DNA from: Candidatus Gastranaerophilales bacterium
Lineage (GTDB): Bacteria; Cyanobacteriota; Vampirovibrionia; Gastranaerophilales; Gastranaerophilaceae
Reading direction: 5' to 3'
Length of the DNA: 64,000 bases
Assembly: GCA_947624645.1 (NCBI GenBank)
Contig: CANQLG010000004.1
Coordinates: forward strand, 7,006 to 71,005
A program made the position numbers and the translations under genes. Below are positions 11,777-43,613 of this stretch, one piece after another. The notes beneath the pieces were generated by a model. The model saw only the letters and a list, made by a program, of their open reading frames with translations. It was not told the origin of the DNA and ran no database searches. The first letter of the stretch is position 1, and each line of letters opens with the position of its first letter.

Positions 11777-14689
11777 ATGGAAATTGATCAATTAAAATTA
11801 AGTTTTTTTAATTACTTGAAAGAAAATCAAACTGAACAAGACAACAAAATCGGAGAATTTTCTGATTTTAGTATATTTAGTTATGTAAAAGAATTTAAGG
11901 AATTTTTAACTGATGAATTTCATGCAACAACAGACGATTTATCAATGGATGTTTCAGATCTGTTAAATTTGGAAATAGAAAACGGAAAAATTATAACAGA
12001 CGAAAATGATAATACAAACGACGGCAAAAATGATGATTTGATGGTAGATGTATTAAATTTAATGTTTGAAGATGAAGAATTTAAAGATAAATTTGATACG
12101 GATTCTAATGGAGAGATAAATAAGGAGGAATTTGAATCATTTTTAGAAAAAGTAAAAGATATAGATAAAAATGAAAATAATTTTTCAATAGATGATTTAG
12201 TAGGTTCGGCAGAAATAGAAGATGAAGCAACAGAAGCGACAGAGCCGACAGCACCTGCCGAAGATCCGTCAATAGATTCTCCTGGCGGAGGTGGCGGTGG
12301 AGGTGGCGGAATTGATGGCGCCGGAAATGTTGACGGCCCGGCAAGTTCATCCAATACAAACCTCAGTAATGATACTTCAAGCGCAGATTCTGCTTTAAGT
12401 TTAGGAGATGAATCTTCTAGCAAAGACTATGAAAATATGAGTGTTGAAGAATTAACTCAAGCATTGAGTCAGGCAAATGCTGACCTTCAAACAAAGGAAA
12501 GTGAATTAAGTGCAATTCAAAACGGAACCGATTCTAATATTGCAGCGGCAAAAGGTGCAATGGATGATGCTTTAGAAGCATATACAGGAGCTCTTGAAGA
12601 ATTAGAAGATGAAGATGCGGACAAACTTGCTGAAGCTGTTGAAAAAGTTGAAGAATATAATAACCAAAAAACTGAAAATGAAGATAGAAAAAATGCTGCA
12701 ATTGATGCAAGAGATCAAGCCAATACTGATGTTGACACATATGCATCAGAAATAGAAACTTGCGAAGGACAAATCAGCAGCCTGCAAGCACAAATATCAA
12801 CCTGGCAAGCATCTATGAACTTAAATGAAGATGAAGAAGATGCAGGTTTACAAGAACTGATACAAAACGCCGAAGCACAAATAGAAGCACTTGAAGCACA
12901 AAAGGAGGAAGCGGAAGCAAATAAAGCGGAGGCTGAAGAAAGAGTTGTTCAAGCAGAAGCAGAGATAGCTGAAGCTGAAGAAGCAATTGCTAATAGCGAA
13001 CAAGACATTACCAGCTACGAAGAGACAAGAGAAGAACTTGAAGACAAAATCTTAGAAGATCATGAAGATATTGCGGAATTAAAAACTGCATATGATACGG
13101 CAAAAACCGAATATGAAACTGCAAAAGAAACTGCCATAACTGAAGCTCAACAAGCTGTTGATGATGTAAGAGATAGAATTGCAGAAATTCAAGCAGCTCT
13201 TGATACTGCCATTGCTAATGAACAAAAAGCAATTGAAGACAAATATCCTGAAGATGAAATAAAAGTTGATGAAGAAATTGGTTCTGACTTCATTGATGAA
13301 ATTCTTGCAAATGATCCTGAAAAAACTGAAGAAACTGAAGATTCTGAAGAACCTGAAAAACCAGAAGGGGCTGAAGGTGCTGAAGAAGAATCGGAAGAAA
13401 CAAAAAAAGAAGATAAAATCGATGAACTTTGTGAATTATTAGATATGGATAGAGATCAAGTCGGCATATATTTGAAAAATATAAGTAATGAATCCGGTCT
13501 ATCAGCTAAAGATTTATATGAAAAAATTTCCGATTACATAGAATTTTGTAAAGAAGAAAAAGATCAAGTTAATCCTGATGTTCTGAAATACTACCACATT
13601 GATGAAGATAAGGCAAATGAATATATTGAAGATTATAATACCAGATTCGGCACAAGTTATGACCTTGAATCCTTGAAAGATAATCCTGCAAAAATGTTTG
13701 AATTATTATCTTTATACGGAGAAAAGAAAAATGACACTGAAATTGAATCCGTACGTATACAAAACGGTATTGATAAACGTATAAATGAAGAAAAAGAAGC
13801 TCTTAAAGAAGATTTAAAAGCGGATGACAGCCCATACAAAGATATATTTGATCCTAAAGCAAGTGAAGAAGATGCAAAAAAAGCTATTGATAGTTATCTC
13901 ACAGAGATTAAAGACGATCCGCATGCCCAATTCCTCTTTTATAGTTTATTAGCGGATGACGAAAAAACTTTAGGCTTATTAAAAGATTATTTTAATGATC
14001 ATCCTGATAAAAAAGATTCATTTAAATCAGTATTTACTGATGAAATCAGACGAATCAACAGTTCACAAATGTATGCACCTAATACATTTGCAGATGTTAT
14101 TTATATCTATGGAGAAATGAATGACATAGCTATTAAATCAGGTGTTATTGATGAAAATACCAATTTGTTAACAGTTATAATGGAAAATGATTCTAATCTC
14201 GAATTTTATGAAGATATTAAAGCTTTATTTGATAAGGCATTAACAATGGAAGAAATTAATCTGCTTAATGACAACGGCTTTAATGTTGAAGATATTATTA
14301 AAGCATACAATTCAAACGGTTCCGACAAAGGTAATGAATTCTTTAGAACATTATTAGATAAAATGAAAAGAATAGGAGATAACAAATATTATTTCGATGG
14401 AACTCATTCCAGCTTTGATGAAGTGAAAGATAACGAAGGTGAAATTAAATCTTTACAAGAAAAATACGGTAATGACCCTGAAAAAATTATAAATGCATTT
14501 AAAAATAATGATATCCAAGATCCTACCGTTGCTATGTATTTACTGGCACAATGCGATAATTTGAATGATTTTCTTGAAAATGCCTCAGAAGATCAAGCAA
14601 TCATTTTATTTGAAATATACCGCACGATGGAAGGAGCACCATACTTAGAACTACTAAGACCGGAAAACCCAGCTGTGCCGGTGTCTTAA
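11777..14689 (+). CDS. Hypothetical 970-aa hyper-acidic protein with one EF-hand loop, a poly-Gly hinge and a long E/A-rich coiled coil
   Basis: GGAG precedes the ATG. DTDSNGEINKEE (12095-12130) fits the canonical 12-residue EF-hand loop. No signal peptide is present. Confidence 0.6.
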   Translation: MEIDQLKLSFFNYLKENQTEQDNKIGEFSDFSIFSYVKEFKEFLTDEFHATTDDLSMDVSDLLNLEIENGKIITDENDNTNDGKNDDLMVDVLNLMFEDEEFKDKFDTDSNGEINKEEFESFLEKVKDIDKNENNFSIDDLVGSAEIEDEATEATEPTAPAEDPSIDSPGGGGGGGGGIDGAGNVDGPASSSNTNLSNDTSSADSALSLGDESSSKDYENMSVEELTQALSQANADLQTKESELSAIQNGTDSNIAAAKGAMDDALEAYTGALEELEDEDADKLAEAVEKVEEYNNQKTENEDRKNAAIDARDQANTDVDTYASEIETCEGQISSLQAQISTWQASMNLNEDEEDAGLQELIQNAEAQIEALEAQKEEAEANKAEAEERVVQAEAEIAEAEEAIANSEQDITSYEETREELEDKILEDHEDIAELKTAYDTAKTEYETAKETAITEAQQAVDDVRDRIAEIQAALDTAIANEQKAIEDKYPEDEIKVDEEIGSDFIDEILANDPEKTEETEDSEEPEKPEGAEGAEEESEETKKEDKIDELCELLDMDRDQVGIYLKNISNESGLSAKDLYEKISDYIEFCKEEKDQVNPDVLKYYHIDEDKANEYIEDYNTRFGTSYDLESLKDNPAKMFELLSLYGEKKNDTEIESVRIQNGIDKRINEEKEALKEDLKADDSPYKDIFDPKASEEDAKKAIDSYLTEIKDDPHAQFLFYSLLADDEKTLGLLKDYFNDHPDKKDSFKSVFTDEIRRINSSQMYAPNTFADVIYIYGEMNDIAIKSGVIDENTNLLTVIMENDSNLEFYEDIKALFDKALTMEEINLLNDNGFNVEDIIKAYNSNGSDKGNEFFRTLLDKMKRIGDNKYYFDGTHSSFDEVKDNEGEIKSLQEKYGNDPEKIINAFKNNDIQDPTVAMYLLAQCDNLNDFLENASEDQAIILFEIYRTMEGAPYLELLRPENPAVPVS

Positions 14690-14738: not shown

Positions 14739-14769
14739 TTTAAATGTGGAATATTAATTTATGTATAAT
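14739..14769 (+). promoter_or_regulatory. Candidate sigma-70 promoter of the 1434-aa autotransporter gene
   Basis: TTAAAT (14740-14745), an 18-nt spacer, then TATAAT (14764-14769) with TG immediately upstream. AT-rich context makes this weak evidence. Confidence 0.3.
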
Positions 14770-14855
14770 TTTTTGTGTTACTTTTTAAGTTTTGGTATAG
14801 GAAGATGAGAAAAAATAATAATAAACACGTTGAAGATAAGAAAATGTATTTTGTA

Positions 14856-17800
14856 ATGGGGGGGGGTAAAAAGAGAGTACTGGCAGCTGCTGTTTTTATT
14901 GTTTTCATTTACGGCAGTAATACATGTATTGCCGAAGAAAGCAAATTAGACCCGACACTGGGAGATAATAGCGGATATACATTAAATCCAGTAACAAGTG
15001 AAGAAAGCAATGTAAAAGCCTTTACTTATGATTCTGAAAGTCAAAAATTAACAACTCAATACTATCAAATTGATATTAAAAGAGACTCCCAAGGAACAGG
15101 TAATAAAATACAGTATTATGAATGGAGCAAAAGTGCCGAGGGCGGAGACCTTTTGGAACCTGTTAGTTATCCGACAGCATATATGGTTTATTATGATGAA
15201 AAAGATCATTATAATAATACGGAGCCATACAAAGTTACAGGTACCGGACATATAATAGAAAAGGATTTTATCGGAAACCATATAACCTCCGGCAACCATA
15301 ACGGTAACGGTATTTATAATGAAGGCGGTATAACAAGTATAGTTGGCGCTTTTATTCATAATTACAGCAAAATAGAATCAGGAGCAGGTTCTAATAACGG
15401 CGGAGCTGTTAATAATACAACTAAAGGCGATATAGGATCTATAAAAGGAAATTTTATCGGTAATTTTATCAGTGCTGTTAGTGATTCAAACGGCGGGGCT
15501 ATTCTTAACAACGGTCATATAGGCAATATAGAAGGAAATTTCATATCAAATTATTCAAGGACAATAGGTGAACATAACGGTTATGGCGGGGCTATATATA
15601 ATGTTAACGGTGTTATAGATTCAATTACCGGAGATTTTATTGATAATCAAGCCTATGCAAACAGATATGCAGATGGCGGAGCTATATTTAACAGCAGTGG
15701 TACTACAAAAATTACAAAAATTAAAGGTGATTTTGTCGGTAATAATGCAAGAGGCTATCAAGGTTTAGGCGGTGCTATATTTGATATCGGGGGTATTTCT
15801 AATATAGAAGGGAACTTTATTCACAATTATACTTATACAGAGGGTGATTTGCACGATGATGATAACAGTAATAAAACACCTGATGTACCTGTAAGTTCTC
15901 AAGGCGGAGCTATAATTGAATACGCTCAAAACAGAGACGTTACAATAACCGGTGATTTTTACGGAAACTATGCTCAATCAATACAACATGAAGGTCAAGG
16001 CGGCGCCGTATATGCAAATTCTAAAAAAGGGTACTCTTTTACTCTTAATAGTGATTTTTATCATAATTATATTATTGGTAATAAAGGTGCAAAAGGCGGA
16101 GCTATATACAATGCAGCAGACGCTACCGTATATTTAAACGGAAAAGAATATTTTCTTAACCATACAAATACAGAATCAGACGAATCAAAAGGCGGTGCAA
16201 TATATAATGAAGGTATTATTAATAATCTAAGCAATGTTACATTTGTTCAAAACTATGCAGAATCAAAGACAGGTTCAGCTCAAGGCGGGGCAATTTGGAC
16301 AAATCAAGATTTAACAATATCTGCTAATGCAGGAACTTCCGAATTTACTAATAACTATGTAAATGCGGCAGGTGTTCAATCTCAAGAAGCCATATATGTT
16401 GATAACGCAAAAACTTTAACGTTAAGCTCAACAAATAAAGGAAAAATCCTTTTTAATGACATCATAAACGGTTCAAATTATAATTTAAATTTAACAGGTG
16501 ATAATACGGATTCGGTAATTATTTTTAATAACAAAGTAGTTAACGCTAATGCTACATTAGAGAATGTAACTTTAAAATTAGGCGCAAATGATAATATATT
16601 TAATGAATCTGTGTTAAACATTAACAGCGGTTTCGTAGATACCGCCGACAATGAATATATAGACTATAATTTTAACGAATTAAATTCTAAAGGTTCAGGG
16701 AAATACACCATTGACATAAATTTAAGCAAAGACACAACCGAAGATAAAGCAGACACATTCAATATAAGTAAAAGTGAAAACGGAAGTTATATTGACTTAT
16801 CCAATGTTGCAGTTAATACTTTAAGCAATTATAAAGACAATGCAGACAATGAAGAAGTTCATATTATACAAATAATTAAATCTGCTGACGGAAATATTCA
16901 ACTAAAATTAAACGGCGAGATACAAACAGTTACTGAAGCAGCTGCTGAAATGACAAGTCAATATATATTAGCAAAAGAATTTGGTCTATATACAAAAGAA
17001 ACAACAAATGACAGTATCAAATTGGTCGGCTGGAGAGATAATCTTGCTGCTTGGAGTGAACTGGAAGTTAATGACGGAACTGAAAAAATATTTACTATTA
17101 AATCCGGTGATACTCAAAATCTTACAAGAAATATTGAAAAATTTGCAGGTAAAGATATTAAAATTATCGGCGAAGGTTCTAACACTTTAAATGTAAATAA
17201 TAAAAATTTATTTGATGATATTAAAGAAGACCAAAATGTTTATTTATCAAACTTTTCTCTTAAAAATGCTGATAAAATAAATAACCATGGTTCTATGACT
17301 TTTGAAAATATCATTTTGGAAGATTCTTCAAAGGTTTCAAATAATAAAGACTTAATAATCAAAGGTAATACAGATATCAACGGAACAATTACAGCCGATA
17401 GTAAAGGAAATTTAACCTTTGATAATTCCGCTATAAAAATAACAGGTAAAGTTGAAAATCAACAAATAAACAATAACAATAGTGAAACTACGCTTGTAAA
17501 TATTAAAGATTTCGCTAATAACGGACTGACTATGAACGGTGGAAATTTTAATATAACAAATTTAGGGTTAAACAATTTGAGTTTAAATAATTTAAATTTA
17601 AAGGACGGAAACATTAATATTGATAGAGTTGATGTTGACCTTAAAAATTCCATAATGGGAAGAATTACTGCTGATAAGTACAATATTGGAAAAGATTTCA
17701 AAGGTGAAATCAATATTAAAGATATGAACATCACAAGTGATTCCGAACATATGCAGACCGTTGTAGATTTTGCGGATGAAGCTATAAAAAATTACGTAAA

Positions 17801-19079
17801 TACACAAATAACTGAAGCTCCGACAGCAGGGCAGCAATGGAATGTTTATTCACCTATATACAAATATACGGTTGAATATTCGGCAGATGGAACACACGGG
17901 AATAATGGATATTTTGTATTTTCACGAGGAAATACTCCGACCGGAAATGATTATGACGGATTTAACCCTGCTGTACTTCCTTCAGCCGTTGCTTCACAAG
18001 CAGGCGGTTATGCTGCCGTTAACGAATCATTTAATTACGCATTTGAACACGCTGATACATTTTCGGCTCTGCCTTCATACGAAAAATATGCAATGCTTAA
18101 TGCAAATAAATATGCAATAACAGAAGGTCAAGAATTAAAAGGCTATGTAAATGAAATAAATCATAACAGCACTTGGGTAAAACCTTATGCCACATTTGAA
18201 AATATACCTTTAAAGAACGGCCCTGATGTAGATACTATTACTTATGGTACGTTAGTTGGTACTGACGGCGACATCAAAGAATTAAAACACGGATGGAGTA
18301 CGGTATCAACCGCATATATAGGATATAACGGTTCAAGTCAACACTACCGGGGCGTTGATACAACTCAAAACGGCGGATTGCTCGGTTTAACACAAACTTT
18401 TTACAAAAATAACTTTTACAGTGCAATCACTGCTTCTGTTGGTGCTGCTGTTGGCGAATCTTCCACAATGTACGGGAATGAAGACTTTACAATGTTATTA
18501 TCGGGTGTAGCTTCTAAAAGCGGTTACAGCTTTGAATTTAACAACGGTAAATTCATAATACAACCCACGTTATTACTGGCATATACATTTGTAAATACAT
18601 TTGATTACACTAATGCAGCAGGAGTCAGAATAGACTCTGACCCGCTACATTCAATCCAAGTACGTCCGAATATAAAATTTGTAGCGAATACCGAAAACGG
18701 CTGGCAGCCATATATTTCCGCTGGTGTTGTATATAACATAATGGATAAAACGGAAGTAAATGCCATTAACGGTACAACTGATGTAAGATTACCCAATATG
18801 AGTGTTAAACCTTATGCTGAATATGGAATAGGCATACAAAAACGTTGGAATGATAAATATACGGGATATGCTCAAGCAATGGCTCGTTCCGGCGGCAGAA
18901 ACGGCGTCGCTTTAACTTTCGGGTTCCGCTGGACATTAGGTGATGACAAAAAAATTGAAAAAGTAGAATATAAGAAAGAAAATAAAAATATAACTTTTAT
19001 AGCTAAACTCATAAATAAAATTAAAAACATTCAATTTTCTGCAAATTGCAACGTACCATATACAGCTAATAAATTGTAA
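14856..19079 (+). CDS. Type Va autotransporter with Pmp-type (GGA[IV] / FxxN) passenger repeats
   Basis: Signal peptide MGGGKKRVLAAAVFIVFIYGSNTCIA; about 10 alternating FxxN..GGAI(Y/F)N repeats; C-terminal beta-barrel region (..AYIGYNGSSQHY.., ..ALTFGFRW). Alternative in-frame starts lie at 14805 and 14844, and the ORF is open from 14775. Confidence 0.85.
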   Translation: MGGGKKRVLAAAVFIVFIYGSNTCIAEESKLDPTLGDNSGYTLNPVTSEESNVKAFTYDSESQKLTTQYYQIDIKRDSQGTGNKIQYYEWSKSAEGGDLLEPVSYPTAYMVYYDEKDHYNNTEPYKVTGTGHIIEKDFIGNHITSGNHNGNGIYNEGGITSIVGAFIHNYSKIESGAGSNNGGAVNNTTKGDIGSIKGNFIGNFISAVSDSNGGAILNNGHIGNIEGNFISNYSRTIGEHNGYGGAIYNVNGVIDSITGDFIDNQAYANRYADGGAIFNSSGTTKITKIKGDFVGNNARGYQGLGGAIFDIGGISNIEGNFIHNYTYTEGDLHDDDNSNKTPDVPVSSQGGAIIEYAQNRDVTITGDFYGNYAQSIQHEGQGGAVYANSKKGYSFTLNSDFYHNYIIGNKGAKGGAIYNAADATVYLNGKEYFLNHTNTESDESKGGAIYNEGIINNLSNVTFVQNYAESKTGSAQGGAIWTNQDLTISANAGTSEFTNNYVNAAGVQSQEAIYVDNAKTLTLSSTNKGKILFNDIINGSNYNLNLTGDNTDSVIIFNNKVVNANATLENVTLKLGANDNIFNESVLNINSGFVDTADNEYIDYNFNELNSKGSGKYTIDINLSKDTTEDKADTFNISKSENGSYIDLSNVAVNTLSNYKDNADNEEVHIIQIIKSADGNIQLKLNGEIQTVTEAAAEMTSQYILAKEFGLYTKETTNDSIKLVGWRDNLAAWSELEVNDGTEKIFTIKSGDTQNLTRNIEKFAGKDIKIIGEGSNTLNVNNKNLFDDIKEDQNVYLSNFSLKNADKINNHGSMTFENIILEDSSKVSNNKDLIIKGNTDINGTITADSKGNLTFDNSAIKITGKVENQQINNNNSETTLVNIKDFANNGLTMNGGNFNITNLGLNNLSLNNLNLKDGNINIDRVDVDLKNSIMGRITADKYNIGKDFKGEINIKDMNITSDSEHMQTVVDFADEAIKNYVNTQITEAPTAGQQWNVYSPIYKYTVEYSADGTHGNNGYFVFSRGNTPTGNDYDGFNPAVLPSAVASQAGGYAAVNESFNYAFEHADTFSALPSYEKYAMLNANKYAITEGQELKGYVNEINHNSTWVKPYATFENIPLKNGPDVDTITYGTLVGTDGDIKELKHGWSTVSTAYIGYNGSSQHYRGVDTTQNGGLLGLTQTFYKNNFYSAITASVGAAVGESSTMYGNEDFTMLLSGVASKSGYSFEFNNGKFIIQPTLLLAYTFVNTFDYTNAAGVRIDSDPLHSIQVRPNIKFVANTENGWQPYISAGVVYNIMDKTEVNAINGTTDVRLPNMSVKPYAEYGIGIQKRWNDKYTGYAQAMARSGGRNGVALTFGFRWTLGDDKKIEKVEYKKENKNITFIAKLINKIKNIQFSANCNVPYTANKL
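14858..14866 (+). repeat. G9 homopolymeric tract overlapping the start codon (ATGGGGGGGGGT)
   Basis: Counted directly: nine consecutive G at 14858-14866. Confidence 0.95.
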
Positions 19080-29038: not shown

Positions 29039-30073
29039 TTATCTGCCATTTATCCGTAAATCTGTCTTTTTTACAAAAGCAGGAGTAATTAAATCCCATG
29101 CTGCTTCTGTCGGATGGTCATTTTCCTGCAAATATTTAGGAGAATTTAAATATTCCTTCGTAATTTCCGTAGTATCAATTACTATAAAACCGTTTTGCTT
29201 TAATTTTTCTTTCATTAAATCATTAAAAGCTATATTTTGTCTATCATTTTTATCGGTATAATCACCATAATTATACATCAATATAATAAATTTAAGTTTA
29301 TTATTACTATTTACCCCCCCCCAGAACCAATTTCTTTCAAGCTCTTTTCTTGTTTCAATAAAATACTTAAGCGCATAATCGGTCACTTTATCTTCAATTG
29401 TGTGATAAGGAAATAGCCAAGGCTCTGGATAAGAATAATATTCAGCTATATTTTCATTTATATATTTAAATGTATAAGATGATTTTAATAAATTTAAAAA
29501 TATATTTTTATAATTGTCCGCTACAAGGCGTTTATCCTTGTATTTATAATGTATGTAAAATGAGTCATCAAGTCTGTCATAACTGCCTTTAATAAGCATT
29601 CGGTAGTAATGATCATGCATTAATATATATATAACAGTATCAGAATATGGTATTTGTTTATAAAAATCAGTTTTGTCCTTTTCTTTAGCTTGAAAATACA
29701 TATGTTGCAGTCCCCACCCGGGGTATGATCGGTTAAAAACAGAACGACCTGTTAATTTTGATAACTTATAACTAAATATTTGCCAAGGTTCAAGGTATTG
29801 ACCATAGGCAAATGAACAACCAAAAACTACTATAGGATTTTTCCCTTTGTCATATTTTGAAATTATCGGGTCACGATAGTCTATACTAAATCTATCAATA
29901 AAATGTCCTATCGGTTTTTTTAATATATAATGAAATTTAGGTATTTCTCTACGTATACAATATTCTTTATAATTGTATTTAAATATTATTACATCTAAAA
30001 TAAATATTAATACCAAAATAAACAGTATATTTATAAGCAAAATCCCTACAATTTTAAATATTTTCTTTCTCAT
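29039..30073 (-). CDS. Membrane-anchored SGNH/GDSL-like hydrolase or acyl-esterase (putative surface-glycan modifier)
   Basis: N-terminal TM helix; VVFGCSFAYGQ (block I G-x-S); C-terminal ENDHPTEAAW (block V DxxH). It lies 4 nt downstream of glmS on the same strand. Confidence 0.5.
   Translation of the reverse strand: MRKKIFKIVGILLINILFILVLIFILDVIIFKYNYKEYCIRREIPKFHYILKKPIGHFIDRFSIDYRDPIISKYDKGKNPIVVFGCSFAYGQYLEPWQIFSYKLSKLTGRSVFNRSYPGWGLQHMYFQAKEKDKTDFYKQIPYSDTVIYILMHDHYYRMLIKGSYDRLDDSFYIHYKYKDKRLVADNYKNIFLNLLKSSYTFKYINENIAEYYSYPEPWLFPYHTIEDKVTDYALKYFIETRKELERNWFWGGVNSNNKLKFIILMYNYGDYTDKNDRQNIAFNDLMKEKLKQNGFIVIDTTEITKEYLNSPKYLQENDHPTEAAWDLITPAFVKKTDLRINGR
29314..29322 (-). repeat. C9 (G9 on the coding strand) homopolymeric tract inside the SGNH-like gene
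   Basis: Counted directly: ttaCCCCCCCCCagaacc. The coding strand reads TGG GGG GGG GTA (W-G-G-V). Confidence 0.95.
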
Positions 30074-33678: not shown

Positions 33679-34125
33679 CGTCTATTTGCAAGCCTTTTAG
33701 CCATGCTAATTATTTTTTTATTCGGCGGATTTTCATTTATTCTCACATTATTCTCACATTTTTCAGAAAAAATATTATTTATCTTATTCCGAGCTTTAAT
33801 TATCATATCGTTATTGTTCTTAGCGTATATTTTTAAAGTCGTTTCCGCTTTTGAATGACCTACTTGATTTTAAACAAATTTTACACTTAAACCGTTTGCC
33901 AAGCCCAAATCAATATATGAGCCTCTTAAATCGTGCATCCTCACTCGTTTTTCAATTCCGCAAAGCTCAAGCAGTTTATACCAAAATCTTATGCAGAAAT
34001 TACTGTCATTATGGCAATTGCCTGCTCGATTCGAAATAACAAAGAATTATCTTTATCAAGAGTTTTTATATGCTCTTTTAGAACTTCTGCAAAGAACGCA
34101 ACGGGAACAAGTTTTAATGACGCAT
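33672..34125 (-). pseudogene. Tyrosine recombinase (phage integrase) remnant: C-terminal catalytic half with an in-frame stop and a frameshift
   Basis: The minus strand reads ..VPVAFFAEVLKEHIKTLDKDNSLLF.. then, in another frame, ..FCIRFWYKLLELCGIEKRVRMHDLRGSYIDLGLANGLSVKFV*NQVGHSKAETTLKIYAKNN... The HxLR and GH..T..Y boxes are present, there is a TAA between them, and the N-terminal half is absent. Confidence 0.75.
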
Positions 34126-35138
34126 TCAGATTAATTCGCACCGAAACGAGCCATATTGACGGGCAAGTAACACTCGAGGGCTACAAACAGGCAAAAGAGG
34201 AATTAGGGCTTGAATATTATGATTATGACGCTTTTTTAGATTCGAAAACGTCGACAATTTGTGAAGAATTAAACGGTAAAAGATTTAGAATAGATGAAGC
34301 CGAAGTCGGGGTGAATTATCCCCCAATGCACCCGAACTGCCGAAGTACAACACAACTTGTTTTAGATGAGAATTATAAAAAGGAAGAAAAAGAAACCGTA
34401 AAAGTAGGTGCAAACGAAAATAAAAACAACGAAGCAAAAGAAACAAATAAAAATTCTGCTCAAAAAAGCTCTGATGATAAACCCGTCTTAATTGAAAAAG
34501 GAACACAGAAAAAAGGCTCTGAAATACCGAAAGAAGAAAAAATTACTTATAAACCATTTGATAATGGAGAAGCAGCTAATGAATTCTTTTATAAAAATAA
34601 AGAATATCAAAAATGGGTTAATAGCCTGAATAAAGACGAGACTGAAGCAATACAAGAATATACAGAAGATTTATATTCAGTTATTAATGACAAATTGCGT
34701 GGATTTTATGATACTGATGATAAACTTATTAATGATGCAATAAATAAATTAAGCAATTCTATTGATAATTTTAAATTAACTGATAATATTCAAGTTTATA
34801 GAGGTGTAGATGTAAATGCTCTTGACGGCTTTATGCGACAAAATAATATAAATAAATATACTGAAGCTATCGGTAAAATTTATAATGATAAAGCCTTTAT
34901 GAGTACATCCTTATTAAAATCAGGTGCAGGCTTAGAAAAATTTAATGAACAAGATATTCAATTTATAATAAATATTCCTAAAGGAAAAGGTCGAGGTGCA
35001 TATATAAATGAATTGTCTTTAAAAAAAGACAAAGAATATGAGTTTTTACTTCAAAAGAACTCAAAACTAAGAATAACAGATGTAAAACCAATAGAAAATA
35101 CTAACCAAACAATTATTTTTGCTGATTTAGAAATTTAG
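33933..35138 (+). CDS. N-terminally truncated MuF/SPP1 gp7-family head-morphogenesis protein fused to a C-terminal R-S-E ADP-ribosyltransferase toxin domain
   Basis: MuF core from about 34090 (FRLIRTETSH.., DSKTSTICEELNGKRF, PPMHPNCRSTT). ART motifs are EYTEDLYSVINDKLRG, VYRG (Arg codon 34800-34802), FMSTS (34902-34910) and EYE (35034-35042). The first ~55 codons of the ORF overlap the integrase remnant and are probably not native. Confidence 0.8.
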   Translation: MHPHSFFNSAKLKQFIPKSYAEITVIMAIACSIRNNKELSLSRVFICSFRTSAKNATGTSFNDAFRLIRTETSHIDGQVTLEGYKQAKEELGLEYYDYDAFLDSKTSTICEELNGKRFRIDEAEVGVNYPPMHPNCRSTTQLVLDENYKKEEKETVKVGANENKNNEAKETNKNSAQKSSDDKPVLIEKGTQKKGSEIPKEEKITYKPFDNGEAANEFFYKNKEYQKWVNSLNKDETEAIQEYTEDLYSVINDKLRGFYDTDDKLINDAINKLSNSIDNFKLTDNIQVYRGVDVNALDGFMRQNNINKYTEAIGKIYNDKAFMSTSLLKSGAGLEKFNEQDIQFIINIPKGKGRGAYINELSLKKDKEYEFLLQKNSKLRITDVKPIENTNQTIIFADLEI

Positions 35139-36413: not shown

Positions 36414-39400
36414 CTATGATTTTACCTCTTTCTTTACTAAATACATTAGCCTTATTGGAGAATCATATGATTTTGTTTGAGGAGGTCTTGTTATATACTT
36501 TTTGACAGGTTGTTCGGGTTCAATTGGGTTTTGTAATTGAGATTCAGATGCATTCGCTTTTTTATTGCGATGATTATCTAACAAATATTGAAGCCCAAAC
36601 TGGAAGCCCACACCGGTAATACCTGCATTACGGATATTAATTTGACCGTATGTTGCCAATTTATCTTTAAATGTTTTAGTAGCACCAAAACCATATTGGA
36701 ACACACCGTGGTCAAGTTTCATATCAGGAAGTTTAATATTTGCAGCATTTCCTTTTACTTTATCATTAATAAAGAACATATACTGGAATGCGGCATATAG
36801 GCTCCAAGTTTCTTTAGCGAAAATGAAGTTTACACCAGGTGCAACATTAACACCGTTTAACATACCCGTACTCATATCTACATCACCATAATTACTGTGC
36901 CATTTTTGTTTTCCAATAGCATTATATGCAACAAATACATTTGGCTGTATAGTGAAACTCTTTGAAGCATGCAAGTTATATGCTGATTTAATAGCACTAC
37001 CTGCAAACCAGTTACCCGTATTATCATTATAGCTTGAGTAGCTCATTTCATTTGTATAACCGCCGCCATATGCCAAAATTGAAGTAATAAAATCGTTATT
37101 TTTAATAAATGATCCCATAAAGCCTAATTGACCTGCATTTTGATATGCACCTGCGCCTTGGAAATATTGATGAGCGCCTGTGTATCCCACATAACCTGTT
37201 GGTACAAACGTCCAATCTTTTTTAAGTTCTATGGCGGGCATATCAAACCCTGCTATTGTGCCATAAATATTATTACCTATTCTCAAATTTTGTTTCATAT
37301 CAAGCTTATCAAAAGAAACATAAGTTTTTGACCACAAACCGCCTTCTTTATATGTTTTTTGATACGGGGCAAACAATGGAGATACGGCAGAATATTTGTT
37401 AGCATTCACTGCTTTATTAATCATAGTTTGATCATGTAAAACAAAATGATTGGTAATCATATCTTCTACTTGCAACTGATTAGAATACATAGCGGTTGTT
37501 GCAACCTGACCTCTGAATTCTTCAGGAACGTATTTTGCAAGATATAAATCAAACATTTTCGGATCACCGTCAACACCCTTTAAGCCATAATATCCGACAG
37601 GAGTTCTGATAAGTTTATCCGTTGTACTGGTATTAACATTTTCCTGTACACTTTCAAACAATTGATACCTTATCGTTCTGTCTAGCGGACATTTACCTTG
37701 GAGTGAAAAATCATCGATATAAAGATTTGCATCTTCAAGCGCACCTTCTTTTTGTGTGACATTTTTAAAATCGAATTTATCACTGCGTTTATCTCTGGGG
37801 CTAAAATCAACCGTAAATTTTCCGGTTCCGTCAAGTTCTACGTTATCAGCCTCAGCACTATCAATCTTGCCGTTCATCAGTCCAAATTTGGAGTTACCCT
37901 CCATTGTTAGTTTATCGGCTTTAAAATTTCCTTCTTCATTATCCGAACCTGCATAATTAAGCGTTGAATTATTAAGTAAAACTTCTCCGCCTCTAATAGA
38001 ACTGTCTTGTCCGTTAAGCGTAATATTAGAATCAGTAAAATTAGATTTACCGCCCGTTTGAAGTAAACCGCCTCCGCTAGCTGTATTATCAACTCCCGTT
38101 GCATTAAGCGTTCCGCCTTTTCCTTCTTCTTTTTCAATTGTAATAGTGCCTGCCCAGATATCTTCTTGATCCAAATTAAAGGTAGCATCATCTTCTATAT
38201 TAAATTTAGCTCCTTTTTCAAGTTCTACTTGGACCTCATCTTTAATTATACTTCCGGAACCGCCTTCGTTTCCTTTGAAATCAAATTCTGAACCGTTTTT
38301 AAATTTTAATTTACCCAGTTCCGCATTAAGTCCGCCTGACTGTCTGCTAACACCTTCTTCATCTTTCGACATACCATATTCAAGAATACCACCGCTTAAT
38401 TTAACATCGCCTGCCCATTTATCATCGTTTCCGAAGGTAACGGCACTATTTTCCTGTACTTCCAGTTTTCCGCCTTGTTCTAAATTAAGGGTTACTTCAT
38501 CGGAGATAATACTTTCGCCTTTAAGTGTCAAATTCAGACCGTCTTCGCCTCCATCTTCACCGATTTGAAGTGTACCGCCTGACATTTTAAGATTTTTAGC
38601 TTCGCCTTCTATTTGCCAGTTTAATTTACCGTTAGTAATATTTGTATCACCGCCAAAAAATTTAGCTTCACCCGTTACATTTGTTGTTCCGCCGGTTTGA
38701 GAATAACTGCCTGTATATCCGCTTGCATCACCCGTCAAATCAATAATACCCTCTTCACTATTGATAATTGCACCTTTTGAAGCGCTTTCGCCGCTAGTTA
38801 ACTTGCCGTTTAATTCCAAGTGACCTTTACCGCTGTTTGTAATACTTCCATCATTTTCTACTTCGTTAAGGGTCATTTCACCTGAATTTTTTATACCGTT
38901 ATCTCCGTTTGCAGTATTTGTAACTTTGCCTTCAACAGAAAGAGAGGCACTTTCACCTGTATTATTAAAGGTGCCTGTGTTTTCCATATTACCTGTAATA
39001 TCATAGGTACCCTTATTATCAACTTTTCCGTTGTTCGTATCATTACCTTGATTTGTAATTGTACCTTCATTTGAGATAGTACCATTATTTGCACTTGATG
39101 TTTGTATTGTTATATTACTGTCTGACGCATTTTTAATATTTCCGTTTTTGGCAGAATTTTCTAATGACCCTAAGGCTAAAGAACCTGCTAAAGTGTCAGA
39201 TCCGTTATTTAATGTGCCGTTATTTGTAAATGTATATCCTTCATTTGTTATTGTACCTGTATTATTTACAGTATCACCGTTTATAATATTTCCGTTAGCA
39301 GTAATTTCAGCTCCGTTTGTATTATCTATGGTACCTTTTGTATTATTCAAGGCATCATTAACAGTTAAATGAGAATCTGCACCATCATTGGTAATAGTTC

Positions 39401-42400
39401 CGCCATTATTTGTAAGTTCACCTGTTATGTTAAATTGTCCGCCTTCTTTATTTTCTAATATACCATTTTGACCGTTTGTTACTGCATTTTCTGCTGTAAA
39501 TTGTGCATTTTCGCCTGAGTTTGTTATTGTCCCGTCATTAGTTACAGCACCTTTTGCATCAAAAGTACCGTTATTTGTTATTTTACCTTGTTCCGATGTC
39601 GATGTTGTACCTTGAACTTCGGTAGTGGAACCATCTTCATTTATATATTCGCCACTATTGTAGTCTAAATTTTCTTCAACAATAACTTTACCTTCATCTG
39701 TTGCATTATTTCTAAAAATACCGCCTTTTCCGAATAGATTTTTAACAGTAAATTTACCGTTATTAGAGTTTAATGCATTACCCGAGTTATTAAATGTTGA
39801 ATTTTCAGCTAAGAATGTTCCCTCATTCGTAAATGTTCCCGAGTTTGTCGCCGTGTCACCCGTTACGGTTACACTTCCTTTATTTGTAAATCCTTTATCT
39901 TCACCTGTTCCGCTATTTTCAAAGGTTTGAGCTGTCAGAGAACTATCTTCGGTTTCATTAGCATATTTACCCGAGTTCGTAAATTTGCCGTTTTCTGCCT
40001 TGAATGTTCCGCTGTTGGAAATATCACCGGCATTTACGGCATCGCCGTTTGATGTAAATTCGCTTGATTCCGAGTTTGTAATTGAAGCGCCGTCTTGGTT
40101 ATTTAATGAATCGACGTTCATTGAATTTTCATTGATTATATTTCCGCCTGATTTATTGTCAAATGCACCTTTAACCGTAATATTTCCTTCACCTGAATTT
40201 TTAACGGAACCTGAATTATCCATTGAACCTGCACTCAGAGTGCCTGTATTTTCTATACCTTTTTTTTCATCAGAACCCGAACTTGAATTGGTCAGTTTTC
40301 CGTCTGTTTTAAAAGTTCCGCTGTTTTCAATAGTACCGTTATTGTTGTTTGTAACATCTCCCGTTATTGTAAATCCGCCTTTACCCTCAGTCTCGGTACT
40401 GCTGTTATTTATACTACCGCCGTCATTTGTTAAATTCCCTTGACCTTTAAAAGTACCTTCATTTACTATATTTCCGCCTGTTTGGTTTTTTATTTCGCCA
40501 TTAACGGTAAAATCAGCATCGGCATTATTTGTTATATTGCCTGTATTACTTCCTATTGAGCCTGCAGTAAGTGAACCCGATTCATTGGTAACCGTTCCTT
40601 TTGTATTTGTTAAAGTACCTGTTATTTCAACATTACTGCCTTTATTTGTAAAACTGTTTTGTTCAGTTGCAAGGGTAAGATTACCCATTGTTAATGAGGA
40701 TTCTTCTGCATCTTCGCCGGTAACTAAATCACTATCACCATTAAGTGTAACGTCTGTAATATTTGCGGTACCTTTATTAGCGAAAGTACCTGTTTCCATA
40801 GTCAAACTTTTAAGGTTAAAAGTATCACCATTATTAGTAAGAGTACCTTTATCAGAATTTGTAAATGAACTCAAAGCTGCATCAAATATACCGCCATTAA
40901 CAAAACTGCCAGAGTTTGTTATTGAATGTTCACCTTGTACGGTAAATTTTCCAGAATTATCAAATTTGCTTGAATTATCAATAGAGCCTGATCCCTCTAC
41001 TAAAACGGTACCTTCATTTGTAAAGCCCTTATCATCACCCGTAGCGTTATTGGTAAAATCACCAGTTATAGTTAAGTTACCCGTTTCGGCTTTATTATCA
41101 AATTTACCGGAGTTTGTAAAGTCACCTGATGAAAATGAACCGCTGTTATCTATTGTACCTTTATTTTGTGTTGAACTTTTTGATGTAAATGAGCTTGAAG
41201 CAGAATTTGTCAGTGTTGCATTTTCTTCATTAGTAAAAGAACCTGCACTCATAGTTTTTTCGTTGGTTATTTGGGCATCACTTTTATTTTCTAATGCCCC
41301 TGAAATATCAATATTACCGTTGCCGCTATTTTTCACAGTACCTTGATTTTCCATCGAGTTAGCCTTTAAGGTACCTGTATTATCTATTCCTGCATCGGTT
41401 GAACCCTTACTTGAGTTTGTAATTTTTCCGTTTGAAGAAAGCGTACCTTGATTTTTTATTGAACCGTCGGTTTGATTTTGAATATCTCCCGTAATTGTTA
41501 TATCACTGGAATTGTTATTAGTTAAAGCACCTGAATTATCAAGTGAACCACCGGTCATTGTGCCAGAGTTAGTTATATTGGCATCACTTTTATTTTGTAT
41601 TTGCCCGGATACCGAGAAATTTGATGAATTTTCTACTGTGCCTGAATTATCTAAAGAATCTGCACTAAATGTACCTGATTGATTATCGATTTTTCCGCTT
41701 TGTTCGTTTGTAACGGCACCTGATGCGGTCGAAGTCCCTTTATTTGTATAATCACCAGAATTCGTCATTGATTCAAAGGTCATTTCACCCGAATTGGTTA
41801 TACCTTTACTGTTATCGCTGTTTTTTCCGGAATTAGTAAACTCACCTGTAATATTCAGTTCTGCGTCGTTTGTAACTTTTCCGCTGTTATTAAATCCCGC
41901 ATTAAATTTTACATTACCCTCATTTTTATTTTCTAAATTTCCGCTATTATTAAAATTTCCGTTTTCAACGCTAAAAGTTCCTCCGTCATTGGTTAAGTTA
42001 GAGCTGTTTGTACTTTCGCCTACACCGTTAACCGTAACTGAGCCTTTATTTGTAAAATTAGCATCAACGCCTTCATTTTTTTCATTTTTGAATGCACCAC
42101 CTACTGTAACTGAACCTGATTCATTGTTAAAAGTACCTTTGTTTGTTAAATCATTATCAGATTGGACTTTACCGCCATTATTAGAAAAAGTTCCCGAATT
42201 AGTAACTGTATCTCCTGATATTGAACTTCCTTCTCCCGTATTATTGAAAGTTCCCTCATTGATTACACCTCCTGTTGCGGTGATGGAACCTGAATTCTCA
42301 TATTGAGAAGTTCCTTCGTTTCTAAAATCGCCTTCTACGTCAAAATCCGCATTTGCAAGGTTCTCTGCTGTTGAACCGTTTGAGTTAGTAAATGCATTTG

Positions 42401-43613
42401 CACTTACGTGTCCTGCATTAGAAAAACCTTTATTATCATTTTTTCCTGAGCTTGAGTTAGTAATTGAGCCTGCTTTTAAATAGGCATTCGCTTCATTTTT
42501 TATGATACCATTTGAGTTATTAGTAATATTTCCTTCTATTGAAAACCCATCTTCTTGAGTACTTGAGTTTGTTATTTCTCCTGTATTTGTTAACGAGTTA
42601 GCAGAAAATTTAGCACTGTTTGAAAGTTGGGCTTGGTTGTCAACTGAATTTGCACTAAATGTACCCGATTGATTGTCAATTTTACCGCTTTCTTCGTTTG
42701 TAACTGCACCTGTTATATCCGTTTGACCTTTATTTGTATATTCGCCTTTGTTGTTCATTGACCCCGCATTCAAATTACCCGAGTTGGATATTATACCGTT
42801 AGGTTCCTCTTCATCCTCTTTTTTTGCGTTTTCTAAGGCAGAAGTTCCAAGGTCTAAAGTCGAATTTTCATAATTTGTTACACTACCCGTATTGGATAAG
42901 CCTTTTGATAAATTCAATTGTCCTTTATTTTTGTTATCCATTTGACCATCGTTAGTCATTTTATCGCTTACACTGAAGCTTCCGCCATCATTAGTGATAC
43001 TGCCTTTATTCTCGCCGGTTCCCGATACAGAGAATGTGCCCTGATTAGTCAATCCTGCACTTTTGTTTTCGTCCGAACCGTTTGTCAGATTACCTGTGAT
43101 AGTTGCCGTACCTGTTGCATCATCAGTCTTTGAATTTGTTATTTGACCATCATTTCTTAAATCAACACCATTCATCTTTCCTTTATTTTCTATGGTGCCT
43201 TGGCTTTTATTTTTAAATTCTCCTTTTGAAGTTAATGTACCTGCACTTTCAATGGTAACATCACCCTCATTATCAATGGTACCTCTTTCTTGATTATCAG
43301 TTATTGAGGTTTCTCCTGTAATTTTGCCGTCATCATCTATGTTTATTTTTGATATACCGTAATCGTCATTCATTACCAGCAAAGTATTGCTTTGTTTTGA
43401 ATCGTCTAAATGTATAATATCATCTTGTTTTATATTATCGTTTGTTATTGTTATTCGCTTTATATCAGGGTTAACACTTGCTTGTGATATTGACATACTT
43501 CCTGTCCCAATCAACGCCGCCAATAATGCAGCCATTTTCAATTTATTTTCGTTATTCAAAAATACCCCCCCCCGAACCTTTTTCAGAACGGGAGCTACTA
43601 TTCTATTCCACAC
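36414..43613 (-). CDS. Giant type Va autotransporter (2399 aa) with an N/G/T/S-rich solenoid-type passenger
   Basis: Signal peptide ..KLKMAALLAALIGTGSMSISQA; about 2000 aa of degenerate ~20-aa xNxGxxxN repeats with large internal duplications; C-terminal barrel region (..YVGYTGAHQYF.., ..GVGFQFGLQYLL). The true start is uncertain (GTG 43613, TTG 43559 or ATG 43535). Confidence 0.85.
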   Translation of the reverse strand: MWNRIVAPVLKKVRGGVFLNNENKLKMAALLAALIGTGSMSISQASVNPDIKRITITNDNIKQDDIIHLDDSKQSNTLLVMNDDYGISKINIDDDGKITGETSITDNQERGTIDNEGDVTIESAGTLTSKGEFKNKSQGTIENKGKMNGVDLRNDGQITNSKTDDATGTATITGNLTNGSDENKSAGLTNQGTFSVSGTGENKGSITNDGGSFSVSDKMTNDGQMDNKNKGQLNLSKGLSNTGSVTNYENSTLDLGTSALENAKKEDEEEPNGIISNSGNLNAGSMNNKGEYTNKGQTDITGAVTNEESGKIDNQSGTFSANSVDNQAQLSNSAKFSANSLTNTGEITNSSTQEDGFSIEGNITNNSNGIIKNEANAYLKAGSITNSSSGKNDNKGFSNAGHVSANAFTNSNGSTAENLANADFDVEGDFRNEGTSQYENSGSITATGGVINEGTFNNTGEGSSISGDTVTNSGTFSNNGGKVQSDNDLTNKGTFNNESGSVTVGGAFKNEKNEGVDANFTNKGSVTVNGVGESTNSSNLTNDGGTFSVENGNFNNSGNLENKNEGNVKFNAGFNNSGKVTNDAELNITGEFTNSGKNSDNSKGITNSGEMTFESMTNSGDYTNKGTSTASGAVTNEQSGKIDNQSGTFSADSLDNSGTVENSSNFSVSGQIQNKSDANITNSGTMTGGSLDNSGALTNNNSSDITITGDIQNQTDGSIKNQGTLSSNGKITNSSKGSTDAGIDNTGTLKANSMENQGTVKNSGNGNIDISGALENKSDAQITNEKTMSAGSFTNEENATLTNSASSSFTSKSSTQNKGTIDNSGSFSSGDFTNSGKFDNKAETGNLTITGDFTNNATGDDKGFTNEGTVLVEGSGSIDNSSKFDNSGKFTVQGEHSITNSGSFVNGGIFDAALSSFTNSDKGTLTNNGDTFNLKSLTMETGTFANKGTANITDVTLNGDSDLVTGEDAEESSLTMGNLTLATEQNSFTNKGSNVEITGTLTNTKGTVTNESGSLTAGSIGSNTGNITNNADADFTVNGEIKNQTGGNIVNEGTFKGQGNLTNDGGSINNSSTETEGKGGFTITGDVTNNNNGTIENSGTFKTDGKLTNSSSGSDEKKGIENTGTLSAGSMDNSGSVKNSGEGNITVKGAFDNKSGGNIINENSMNVDSLNNQDGASITNSESSEFTSNGDAVNAGDISNSGTFKAENGKFTNSGKYANETEDSSLTAQTFENSGTGEDKGFTNKGSVTVTGDTATNSGTFTNEGTFLAENSTFNNSGNALNSNNGKFTVKNLFGKGGIFRNNATDEGKVIVEENLDYNSGEYINEDGSTTEVQGTTSTSEQGKITNNGTFDAKGAVTNDGTITNSGENAQFTAENAVTNGQNGILENKEGGQFNITGELTNNGGTITNDGADSHLTVNDALNNTKGTIDNTNGAEITANGNIINGDTVNNTGTITNEGYTFTNNGTLNNGSDTLAGSLALGSLENSAKNGNIKNASDSNITIQTSSANNGTISNEGTITNQGNDTNNGKVDNKGTYDITGNMENTGTFNNTGESASLSVEGKVTNTANGDNGIKNSGEMTLNEVENDGSITNSGKGHLELNGKLTSGESASKGAIINSEEGIIDLTGDASGYTGSYSQTGGTTNVTGEAKFFGGDTNITNGKLNWQIEGEAKNLKMSGGTLQIGEDGGEDGLNLTLKGESIISDEVTLNLEQGGKLEVQENSAVTFGNDDKWAGDVKLSGGILEYGMSKDEEGVSRQSGGLNAELGKLKFKNGSEFDFKGNEGGSGSIIKDEVQVELEKGAKFNIEDDATFNLDQEDIWAGTITIEKEEGKGGTLNATGVDNTASGGGLLQTGGKSNFTDSNITLNGQDSSIRGGEVLLNNSTLNYAGSDNEEGNFKADKLTMEGNSKFGLMNGKIDSAEADNVELDGTGKFTVDFSPRDKRSDKFDFKNVTQKEGALEDANLYIDDFSLQGKCPLDRTIRYQLFESVQENVNTSTTDKLIRTPVGYYGLKGVDGDPKMFDLYLAKYVPEEFRGQVATTAMYSNQLQVEDMITNHFVLHDQTMINKAVNANKYSAVSPLFAPYQKTYKEGGLWSKTYVSFDKLDMKQNLRIGNNIYGTIAGFDMPAIELKKDWTFVPTGYVGYTGAHQYFQGAGAYQNAGQLGFMGSFIKNNDFITSILAYGGGYTNEMSYSSYNDNTGNWFAGSAIKSAYNLHASKSFTIQPNVFVAYNAIGKQKWHSNYGDVDMSTGMLNGVNVAPGVNFIFAKETWSLYAAFQYMFFINDKVKGNAANIKLPDMKLDHGVFQYGFGATKTFKDKLATYGQINIRNAGITGVGFQFGLQYLLDNHRNKKANASESQLQNPIEPEQPVKKYITRPPQTKSYDSPIRLMYLVKKEVKS
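43565..43573 (-). repeat. C9 (G9 on the coding strand) homopolymeric tract at the 5' end of the giant autotransporter gene
   Basis: Counted directly: aataCCCCCCCCCgaacc. The coding strand reads GTT CGG GGG GGG GTA TTT TTG. Confidence 0.95.

Follow-up and report, generated by a model that had tools for sequence, protein, structure and literature searches.

Poly-G and poly-C contingency loci are known from Campylobacter jejuni, Helicobacter pylori and Neisseria/Haemophilus. They occur in low-GC genomes that are otherwise without long G/C runs, where tracts of 8-13 nucleotides (nt) in surface-structure genes act by translational frameshifting. The targets are mostly glycosyltransferase, flagellar-modification and restriction-modification genes. 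The tract described here belongs to a large autotransporter family of another phylum. It is a run of nine G's (G9) near the 5' end of a gene for a Pmp-like autotransporter (14805-19079, + strand), in a 64,000-nt stretch (32% G+C, hereafter the window) of a genome of the Gastranaerophilales (Melainabacteria), uncultured non-photosynthetic cyanobacterial relatives in animal and human guts. Comparison of the sequence with its relatives suggests that the run is a simple-sequence contingency tract, acting as a binary translational slippage switch of this gene. The probability of this reading is put at about 0.8.

The nearest parallel is provided by the poly-G tracts of the Chlamydiaceae pmp genes (C. 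pneumoniae pmp10/pmpG family, C. abortus pmp16G, C. psittaci pmps and C. trachomatis pmpG). Chlamydial pmp genes 'harbour long poly-G tracts' and show frameshifts between sequencing efforts (PMC3323650). The frameshifting polyguanine tract of C. abortus pmp16G is 'centrally located' and its length varied during assembly (PMC3504296), and C. trachomatis pmpG carries an in-frame G9 or G8 (PMC4488443). The window gene resembles these genes in its passenger of GGA[ILV]/FxxN repeats (PF02415) on a C-terminal autotransporter barrel (PMC3323650, PMC3504296, PMC4488443, PMC2997323). Further shared features are a multi-copy paralogous family, coding-strand poly-G inside the open reading frame (ORF), and frameshifted but otherwise intact copies, which in Chlamydia have been linked to variable expression. 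The host is different, being a free-living or commensal gut Melainabacterium and not an obligate intracellular bacterium. Whereas the pmp16G tract is central, the tract here occupies a fixed site between leader and signal peptide in many paralogues. The Pfam models of the Pmp middle domain and the autotransporter beta-domain, unlike in the chlamydial proteins, have no match here.

In Bartonella badE an A9 directly follows the start codon and a G9 falls in the first 6% of the gene; both mutated repeatedly in host passage (PMC11466379). Bartonella simple sequence repeats cluster in the first 5% of genes, and badE ON and OFF alleles occur among strains (PMC11466379). The window gene is similar in that a 9-nt mononucleotide repeat stands at the very 5' end of an ORF for an autotransporter adhesin. 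However, badE encodes a type Vc trimeric autotransporter, whereas the window gene is predicted to encode one of type Va, and badE switching was seen in rodent passage, whereas the evidence here is purely comparative. No relevant paper was found in literature searches that paired Melainabacteria or Gastranaerophilales with phase variation, autotransporter or adhesin. The mechanism itself is of a known kind; in the Gastranaerophilales it is apparently undescribed.

The G9 tract and the reading frame

The window reads gtaATGGGGGGGGGTAAAAAG at the tract, and the nine G's at 14858-14866 (+) given in a preliminary description of this DNA were read directly from it. They are translated as (AT)G GGG GGG GG(T), giving Gly-Gly-Gly. 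Exactly three G/C runs of at least 7 nt were counted in the window, each of 9 nt as first described (14858-14866, + strand; 29314-29322, - strand; 43565-43573, - strand), and the longest remaining run was one G6. The preliminary description had put the chance expectation at 0.005 runs per 64 kb. Dinucleotide-preserving shuffles gave a higher figure, 0.04 G9/C9 runs per window, and the same conclusion, with 0 of 100 shuffles reaching three runs. On the coding strand all three tracts are read as G9 followed by TA, and each is in frame with a long ORF.

Codon usage was compared among the window genes. GGG is the rarest Gly codon (9.1%), and of ~107 Gly-Gly pairs in the window only those at the three tracts are written GGG-GGG. 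The genome appears to avoid G homopolymers outside the three tracts. Because GGG is the rarest Gly codon and the other Gly-Gly pairs are free of G runs, selection would act on the nucleotides and not on glycine. Selection for glycine, as a Gly3 linker or a double-glycine leader motif, was rejected on these grounds, and also because tract lengths are not multiples of 3 and frames across the tract vary among relatives. The majority of window Gly-Gly pairs begin with GGC. The neighbouring gene (11777-14689, +) encodes a nine-glycine stretch at codons ~170-178, spelled by alternating GGC/GGA/GGT; its product is a 970-aa (amino acid) coiled-coil (SMC-like) protein with a weak EF-hand match.

The run-length spectrum was calculated over 1.57 Mb of pooled sequence (window plus related loci) against an expectation of independent, identically distributed bases. 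Up to 8 nt the two agreed: 187 observed and 187 expected for G5, 29 and 33 for G6, 4 and 5.9 for G7, and 1 and 1.05 for G8. A second mode followed, with 33 runs of 9-17 nt against ~0.4 expected, making the spectrum bimodal. G9 is both the modal and the shortest length of this long-run class. The enrichment of long G/C runs in surface genes, which the preliminary description had proposed as a check, is in favour of a switch at the level of the gene family.

In-frame start codons were located at 14805, 14844 and 14856 (all ATG), as previously listed, and additionally at 14775 (GTG). All lie at or upstream of the tract. The codons from the tract to the hydrophobic core of the signal peptide are GGT AAA AAG AGA GTA CTG GCA GCT GCT GTT TTT ATT GTT, in which no in-frame ATG, GTG or TTG was found, in agreement with the first description. 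A role of the tract as the Shine-Dalgarno sequence of a downstream start in the Pmp-like gene was ruled out, as no canonical start follows it.

ATG 14805 is the start used in the public annotation of the protein (P0001, 100% identical, 1,424 aa). The context of this codon, AAGTTTTGGTAT(A/T)GGAA(G/A)ATGA, is kept in a 67%-identical orthologue (locus L001), with a 3-nt indel between the two leaders. In every family member examined, the tract is preceded by a leader of about 15-30 codons that opens with ATG. ATG 14805 is likely the start, being better supported than the fused ATG 14856. The precursor would then consist of a 17-aa leader, M-GGG and the signal peptide, and counted from ATG 14805 the tract forms codons 18-21, not 1-4. 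The preliminary description had the tract fused to the start codon; an ATG does adjoin the G run, but the likely start is 51 nt upstream and the fused ATG is probably incidental. An ATG directly 5' of the tract was present in 8 of 32 flank clusters (~5 independent, ~3 expected), which is no clear enrichment. As ATG 14805, 14844 and 14856 share one frame, the frame logic is the same whichever is used.

Translation was simulated for other tract lengths. Products of 20 aa (G7), 47 aa (G8), 21 aa (G10, with TAA right after the tract), 48 aa (G11) and 1,425 aa (G12) were obtained, which bears out the earlier statement that a change of +/-1 abolishes the protein. With no canonical start downstream of the tract, an exported protein is impossible at G8 or G10.

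The tract is thus part of the coding sequence, with an N-terminal leader on one side and a Sec signal peptide on the other. At G9, or any other length of 3n, the leader starts are in frame with signal peptide, passenger and beta-barrel. At G8 or G10 translation stops at 47 or 21 residues. In the proposed mechanism, tract length would change by slipped-strand mispairing in replication, and in the source organism such changes would be frequent and reversible. Each cell lineage would then display only some of its several Pmp-like surface proteins, and which ones would keep changing. This may help it to evade host antibodies or phages, or may vary adhesion.

Tract lengths among related loci

A family-alignment scan of GTDB species representatives gave 79 related loci. 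Homologues and related loci were almost all from gut metagenome-assembled genomes (MAGs) labelled 'Candidatus Gastranaerophilales', Melainabacteria or 'Cyanobacteria bacterium'. A G7-G17 tract immediately 5' of the signal-peptide core was present in 22 of the 79. The two closest orthologues, L001 (67% identity, GCA_947632315.1) and L002 (57% identity, Logan assembly), have kept ATG+G9 between diverged flanks. Together with these two and the window, 25 tracts were measured, of 7 nt (2), 9 nt (10), 10 nt (3), 11 nt (4), 12 nt (4), 14 nt (1) and 17 nt (1).

Copies were called ON or OFF according to whether the ATG-led leader was in frame with the long ORF. Twelve were ON (window, L001, L003, L006, L020, L027, L033, L036, L042, L043, L051 and L072) and eleven OFF (L031, L038, L044, L048, L050, L052, L054, L056, L057, L069 and L076). 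Two were ambiguous (L002 and L008), with the fused ATG in frame and the leader out of frame. In 11 of 11 OFF copies, 955-1,663 codons were still open 3' of the tract. OFF copies with an intact ORF fit reversible switching and not gene decay. Near-identical pairs differed chiefly in their tracts: L042 is G9 and ON, and L038 G10 and OFF; L051 is G12 and ON, and L052 G10 and OFF; L044 is G9 and L050 G11. The slipped-strand ON/OFF switch of the preliminary description is thus supported at the level of the gene family, with lengths of G7-G17, about half of the copies ON and half OFF, and variants between strains. At the 5' end of the autotransporter ORF of two family members, coding-strand poly-C replaces poly-G (C9, L014 9711-9719; C11, L019 2517-2527). 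In the P0091 cluster the same position holds GGGG, GGGGGGG or a G17 OFF allele.

Strain-level variation was followed in a 90% cluster from Ca. Spyradomonas excrementavium (P0029, 110 members), which contains forms of 1,840, 1,841 and 1,813 aa. Eight assemblies of this locus carried G10, G11 (three), G12, G13 (two) and G12AG, so that the search for length alleles in relatives suggested by the preliminary description was answered here by G10-G13 as well as by the 22 loci above. G11 and G12AG give long ON proteins, whereas with G10, G12 and G13 the leader is out of frame and the gene has been called from an internal Met. The protein calls therefore track tract length, at 1,840/1,841 aa for ON and 1,813 aa for OFF. 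Two assemblies from different samples, L085 (G10) and L087 (G12), had 0 mismatches in 1,400 nt upstream and 5,400 nt downstream. Flanks were also identical between L084 and L086 (both G13) and between L088 and L090 (both G11), and slightly different in L089 (G11). The interrupted tract G12AG (L091 1560-1573) is an in-frame +3 allele and may be less mutable.

The lengths compared are assembly consensus lengths, mostly from short-read MAGs. Homopolymer miscalls are possible in such data, and published chlamydial work cautions on homopolymers (PMC10384503, PMC4488443). One related contig (L060 1-12) ends exactly in its G12 run, and another tract (L041 17802-17810) is followed by a scaffold gap, from which it follows that the tracts break short-read assemblies. 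This weighs against switching, since the tracts could be real and their ON and OFF states artefacts of sequencing or assembly. Such an explanation is nevertheless considered highly improbable. Independent assemblies with the same flank haplotype had the same length (L084/L086 and L088/L090). On a HiFi chromosome (OZ006972.1), six tract-bearing paralogues range from G7 to G14, in both frames, three being ON and three OFF. Differences of 2-8 nt, such as G9 against G11, or G12, G17 and ~G21 in the P0091 cluster, exceed typical consensus errors.

Further sequences of the window locus itself were sought. Exact-protein look-up returned no record of P0001 or of its upstream neighbour. The downstream PLD gene matched two low-coverage contigs of the same species, both of which stop short of the tract. 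This species is present in ENA samples ERZ27249276 and ERZ27249512. Metagenome scans with the window flank GGGGGGTAAAAAGAGAGTACTGGCAG and with the degenerate family pattern GGGGGGGTAACCN{1,3}TAAGGCNYT gave no match. Length variation at the window tract is suggested by the family and by a related species.

A second point against switching is that the window, L001 and L002 are all G9, which could mean that the tract is fairly stable here. The run would then be a stable inherited feature of the locus, as a fixed Gly3 linker or a relic, with no biologically meaningful switching rate. The identity of the three lengths despite only 57-67% protein identity fits such a feature, and no variant allele was found. 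Against this, two GGG codons and the flanking G's have been kept in three lineages although GGG usage is 9%, which points to selection for the homopolymer. Tracts of G7-G17, with OFF alleles, occur at the same position in paralogues and in strains of a related species, and G9 is the commonest, and shortest, member of the long-run class. A stable tract is therefore regarded as quite unlikely.

A third point concerns the binary nature of the switch. Some relatives have a Met in frame 3' of the tract, or a tract-fused ATG, which could allow expression in frames called OFF, and the binary picture may not be valid for the whole family. Tract length could instead act as a graded tuner through RNA-polymerase slippage or alternative starts. 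Out-of-frame alleles would then yield some protein as well, and length would determine either the level of expression or the form of the N-terminus. In Spyradomonas an in-frame ATG lies 4 codons past the tract, before a complete signal peptide (MCIKRYAGYKNF...), and is used by gene callers for G10, G12 and G13. In L002 and L008 it is the fused ATG that is in frame and not the upstream leader ORF, and the window tract at 43565-43573 lies 5 nt upstream of a TTG with a good signal peptide. A three-state switch built from leader ATG, fused ATG and tract is also conceivable but rather doubtful; it would give the protein with a long leader, in a short form, or not at all (OFF). The window gene, however, has no ATG, GTG or TTG from tract to hydrophobic core, its upstream ATGs are in one frame, so that lengths other than 3n truncate at 21 or 47 aa, and ATG before the tract is not clearly enriched. 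For this gene a tuner is judged unlikely, and the binary slippage switch is preferred.

The Pmp-like autotransporter

The gene at 14805-19079 (+) encodes a 1,424-aa precursor that would be ON at G9. From the probable start ATG 14805, chosen from start context and annotation, a short hydrophilic leader (MRKNNNKHVEDKKMYFV-M) extends over 14805-14857 (+). The tract is followed at 14867-14933 (+) by a Sec-type signal peptide, identified by inspection, with n-region KKR, h-region VLAAAVFIVFIY and c-region GSNTCIA, and then EE.

Pmp repeats are defined by GGA[ILV]/FxxN tetrapeptides (PMC2997323). The passenger contains 10 GGA[ILV] and 17 FxxN motifs, which alternate at ~31-residue intervals. Its Pmp-type repeat region at 15267-16356 (+) holds 10 GGA[ILV] and 12 FxxN with a period of ~31 aa. 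All 10 GGA[ILV] motifs found in the window ORFs are within this protein. Pfam and NCBIfam searches of the window protein gave no match even at lax thresholds (Chlam_PMP none at E <= 5). Pfam PF02415 Chlam_PMP was matched by 17 of 26 homologues that are 39-68% identical to it (best E 1e-25). No Pfam match to the Pmp middle domain was found in the window protein or the 26 family members, and none to the Pfam Autotransporter beta-domain in the window protein. A phmmer search of the window protein against the PDB returned nothing relevant.

The last 435 residues were modelled with AlphaFold2 (predicted local distance difference test (pLDDT) 81, predicted template modelling score (pTM) 0.75). The model has a helix at residues 70-109, followed by 12 long strands. 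Its best PDB matches with Foldseek were the translocators of AIDA-I, EspP, BrkA, Hbp, EstA and NalP (E 1e-14 to 1e-9). The translocator, a linker helix and 12-strand beta-barrel with last residues GFRW, was placed at 17979-18935 (+) from these results. Because of the modelled helix and 12-strand barrel, the Foldseek translocator matches and the Pmp repeats, the protein is assigned to the type Va autotransporters with a Pmp-type passenger, type Va membership being taken from the predicted fold. It is a probable adhesin.

Classical autotransporters usually end at the last beta-strand. Here ~45 residues (TLGDDKKIEKVEYKKENKN..., 18936-19076, +) extend beyond the terminal GFRW strand and are disordered in the model (pLDDT <50). 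Short basic tails beyond GFRW are common in the family. Upstream of the gene, a GTGGAATA motif near a TATAAT-like box was seen at ~14746-14753, and likewise upstream of the second window autotransporter (~43604-43611, -) and in L001 (~2600-2610). This motif may serve all three genes as a promoter or regulatory element. A scan for promoter and terminator consensus sequences near the start performed no better than on shuffled sequence.

Other tracts, shared flanks and biological meaning

The second tract (29314-29322, -) is G9 on the coding strand, in the middle of an ORF, at codons 251-254 of 344. The product of this gene (29039-30073, -) has 344 aa, with a membrane helix at the N-terminus and weak similarity to SGNH/GDSL proteins. 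The tract falls in an insertion of 7 aa (FWGGVNS) that is lacking in 38 of 38 aligned homologues. The alignment suggests that a conserved loop of this membrane-anchored SGNH/GDSL-like protein has gained 21 nt that carry the tract. At G8 a TAA would follow after 253 aa and at G10 a TAG after 255 aa, both within two codons.

A 2,399-aa ORF (36414-43613, -) has the third tract (43565-43573, -), also a coding-strand G9, at its 5' end. Residues 2069-2362 of this ORF align with the beta-domain of the Pmp-like protein at 30.6% identity (E 2e-32), and the ORF is accordingly a second autotransporter. A homologue search with its N-terminal 600 aa gave no match. GTG 43613 is the sole in-frame start upstream of the tract. 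A good signal peptide starts at the TTG 5 nt 3' of the tract, and between this TTG and the hydrophobic core there is also an ATG. The true start may be downstream, placing the tract in the 5' untranslated region or ribosome-binding region and not acting through the reading frame. The preliminary description had placed all three tracts in envelope-related genes in the ON frame. Two of the genes are autotransporters, as that account required, and the remaining one encodes the membrane-anchored SGNH/GDSL-like protein; each tract is in frame with its long ORF, with the reservation just given on the start of the 2,399-aa ORF.

A tendency to TTC-Gn-TA(A/G) flanks was observed at all three window tracts (14855-14869, 29311-29326 and 43562-43577) and at L003, L006, L020, L033, L036, L038/42, L041, L044/50, L048 and L054. 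Of 32 flank clusters, 16 have TA right after the run (~3 expected) and 12 have TAA or TAG there (~1.5 expected). The TA is kept though the frame across it varies among ON alleles, and it is also present at the two window tracts outside the family. It is conceivable, though regarded as rather doubtful, that the tract belongs to a small portable cassette, 'TTC-Gn-TA(A/G)', which has been copied from one paralogue leader to another and has also entered unrelated genes. The 21-nt, 7-codon segment around 29314 in the SGNH-like gene is one candidate for such an insertion. In one OFF frame such a cassette would bring a stop codon directly after the tract. If it exists, it would indicate dedicated seeding of switches, or strong convergent design, beyond chance point mutation.

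Elsewhere in the window, an ORF at 33933-35138 (+) joins a phage Mu F-like domain (PF04233) to an ADP-ribosyltransferase exoenzyme toxin domain (PF03496). From its domain content it is assigned as a MuF-ART type polymorphic toxin, or prophage remnant, amid housekeeping genes.

In practical terms, genes with such tracts will wrongly be annotated as truncated genes or pseudogenes, and contigs will break at the tracts. Switching could be looked for directly in metagenomic reads. Given the parallel with chlamydial pmp genes, one may ask whether the combination of repeat adhesin and poly-G is an ancient design or a convergent one.

To our knowledge, almost nothing is known of the interaction of Gastranaerophilales with their hosts. 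The results point to a large family of Pmp-like autotransporters, many gated by hypermutable poly-G, with about half OFF per genome. Gating of this kind with about half of the copies OFF would imply that the cell surface is under strong fluctuating selection, whether from antibodies, from phages or from attachment sites that change. The gating also marks likely adhesins.

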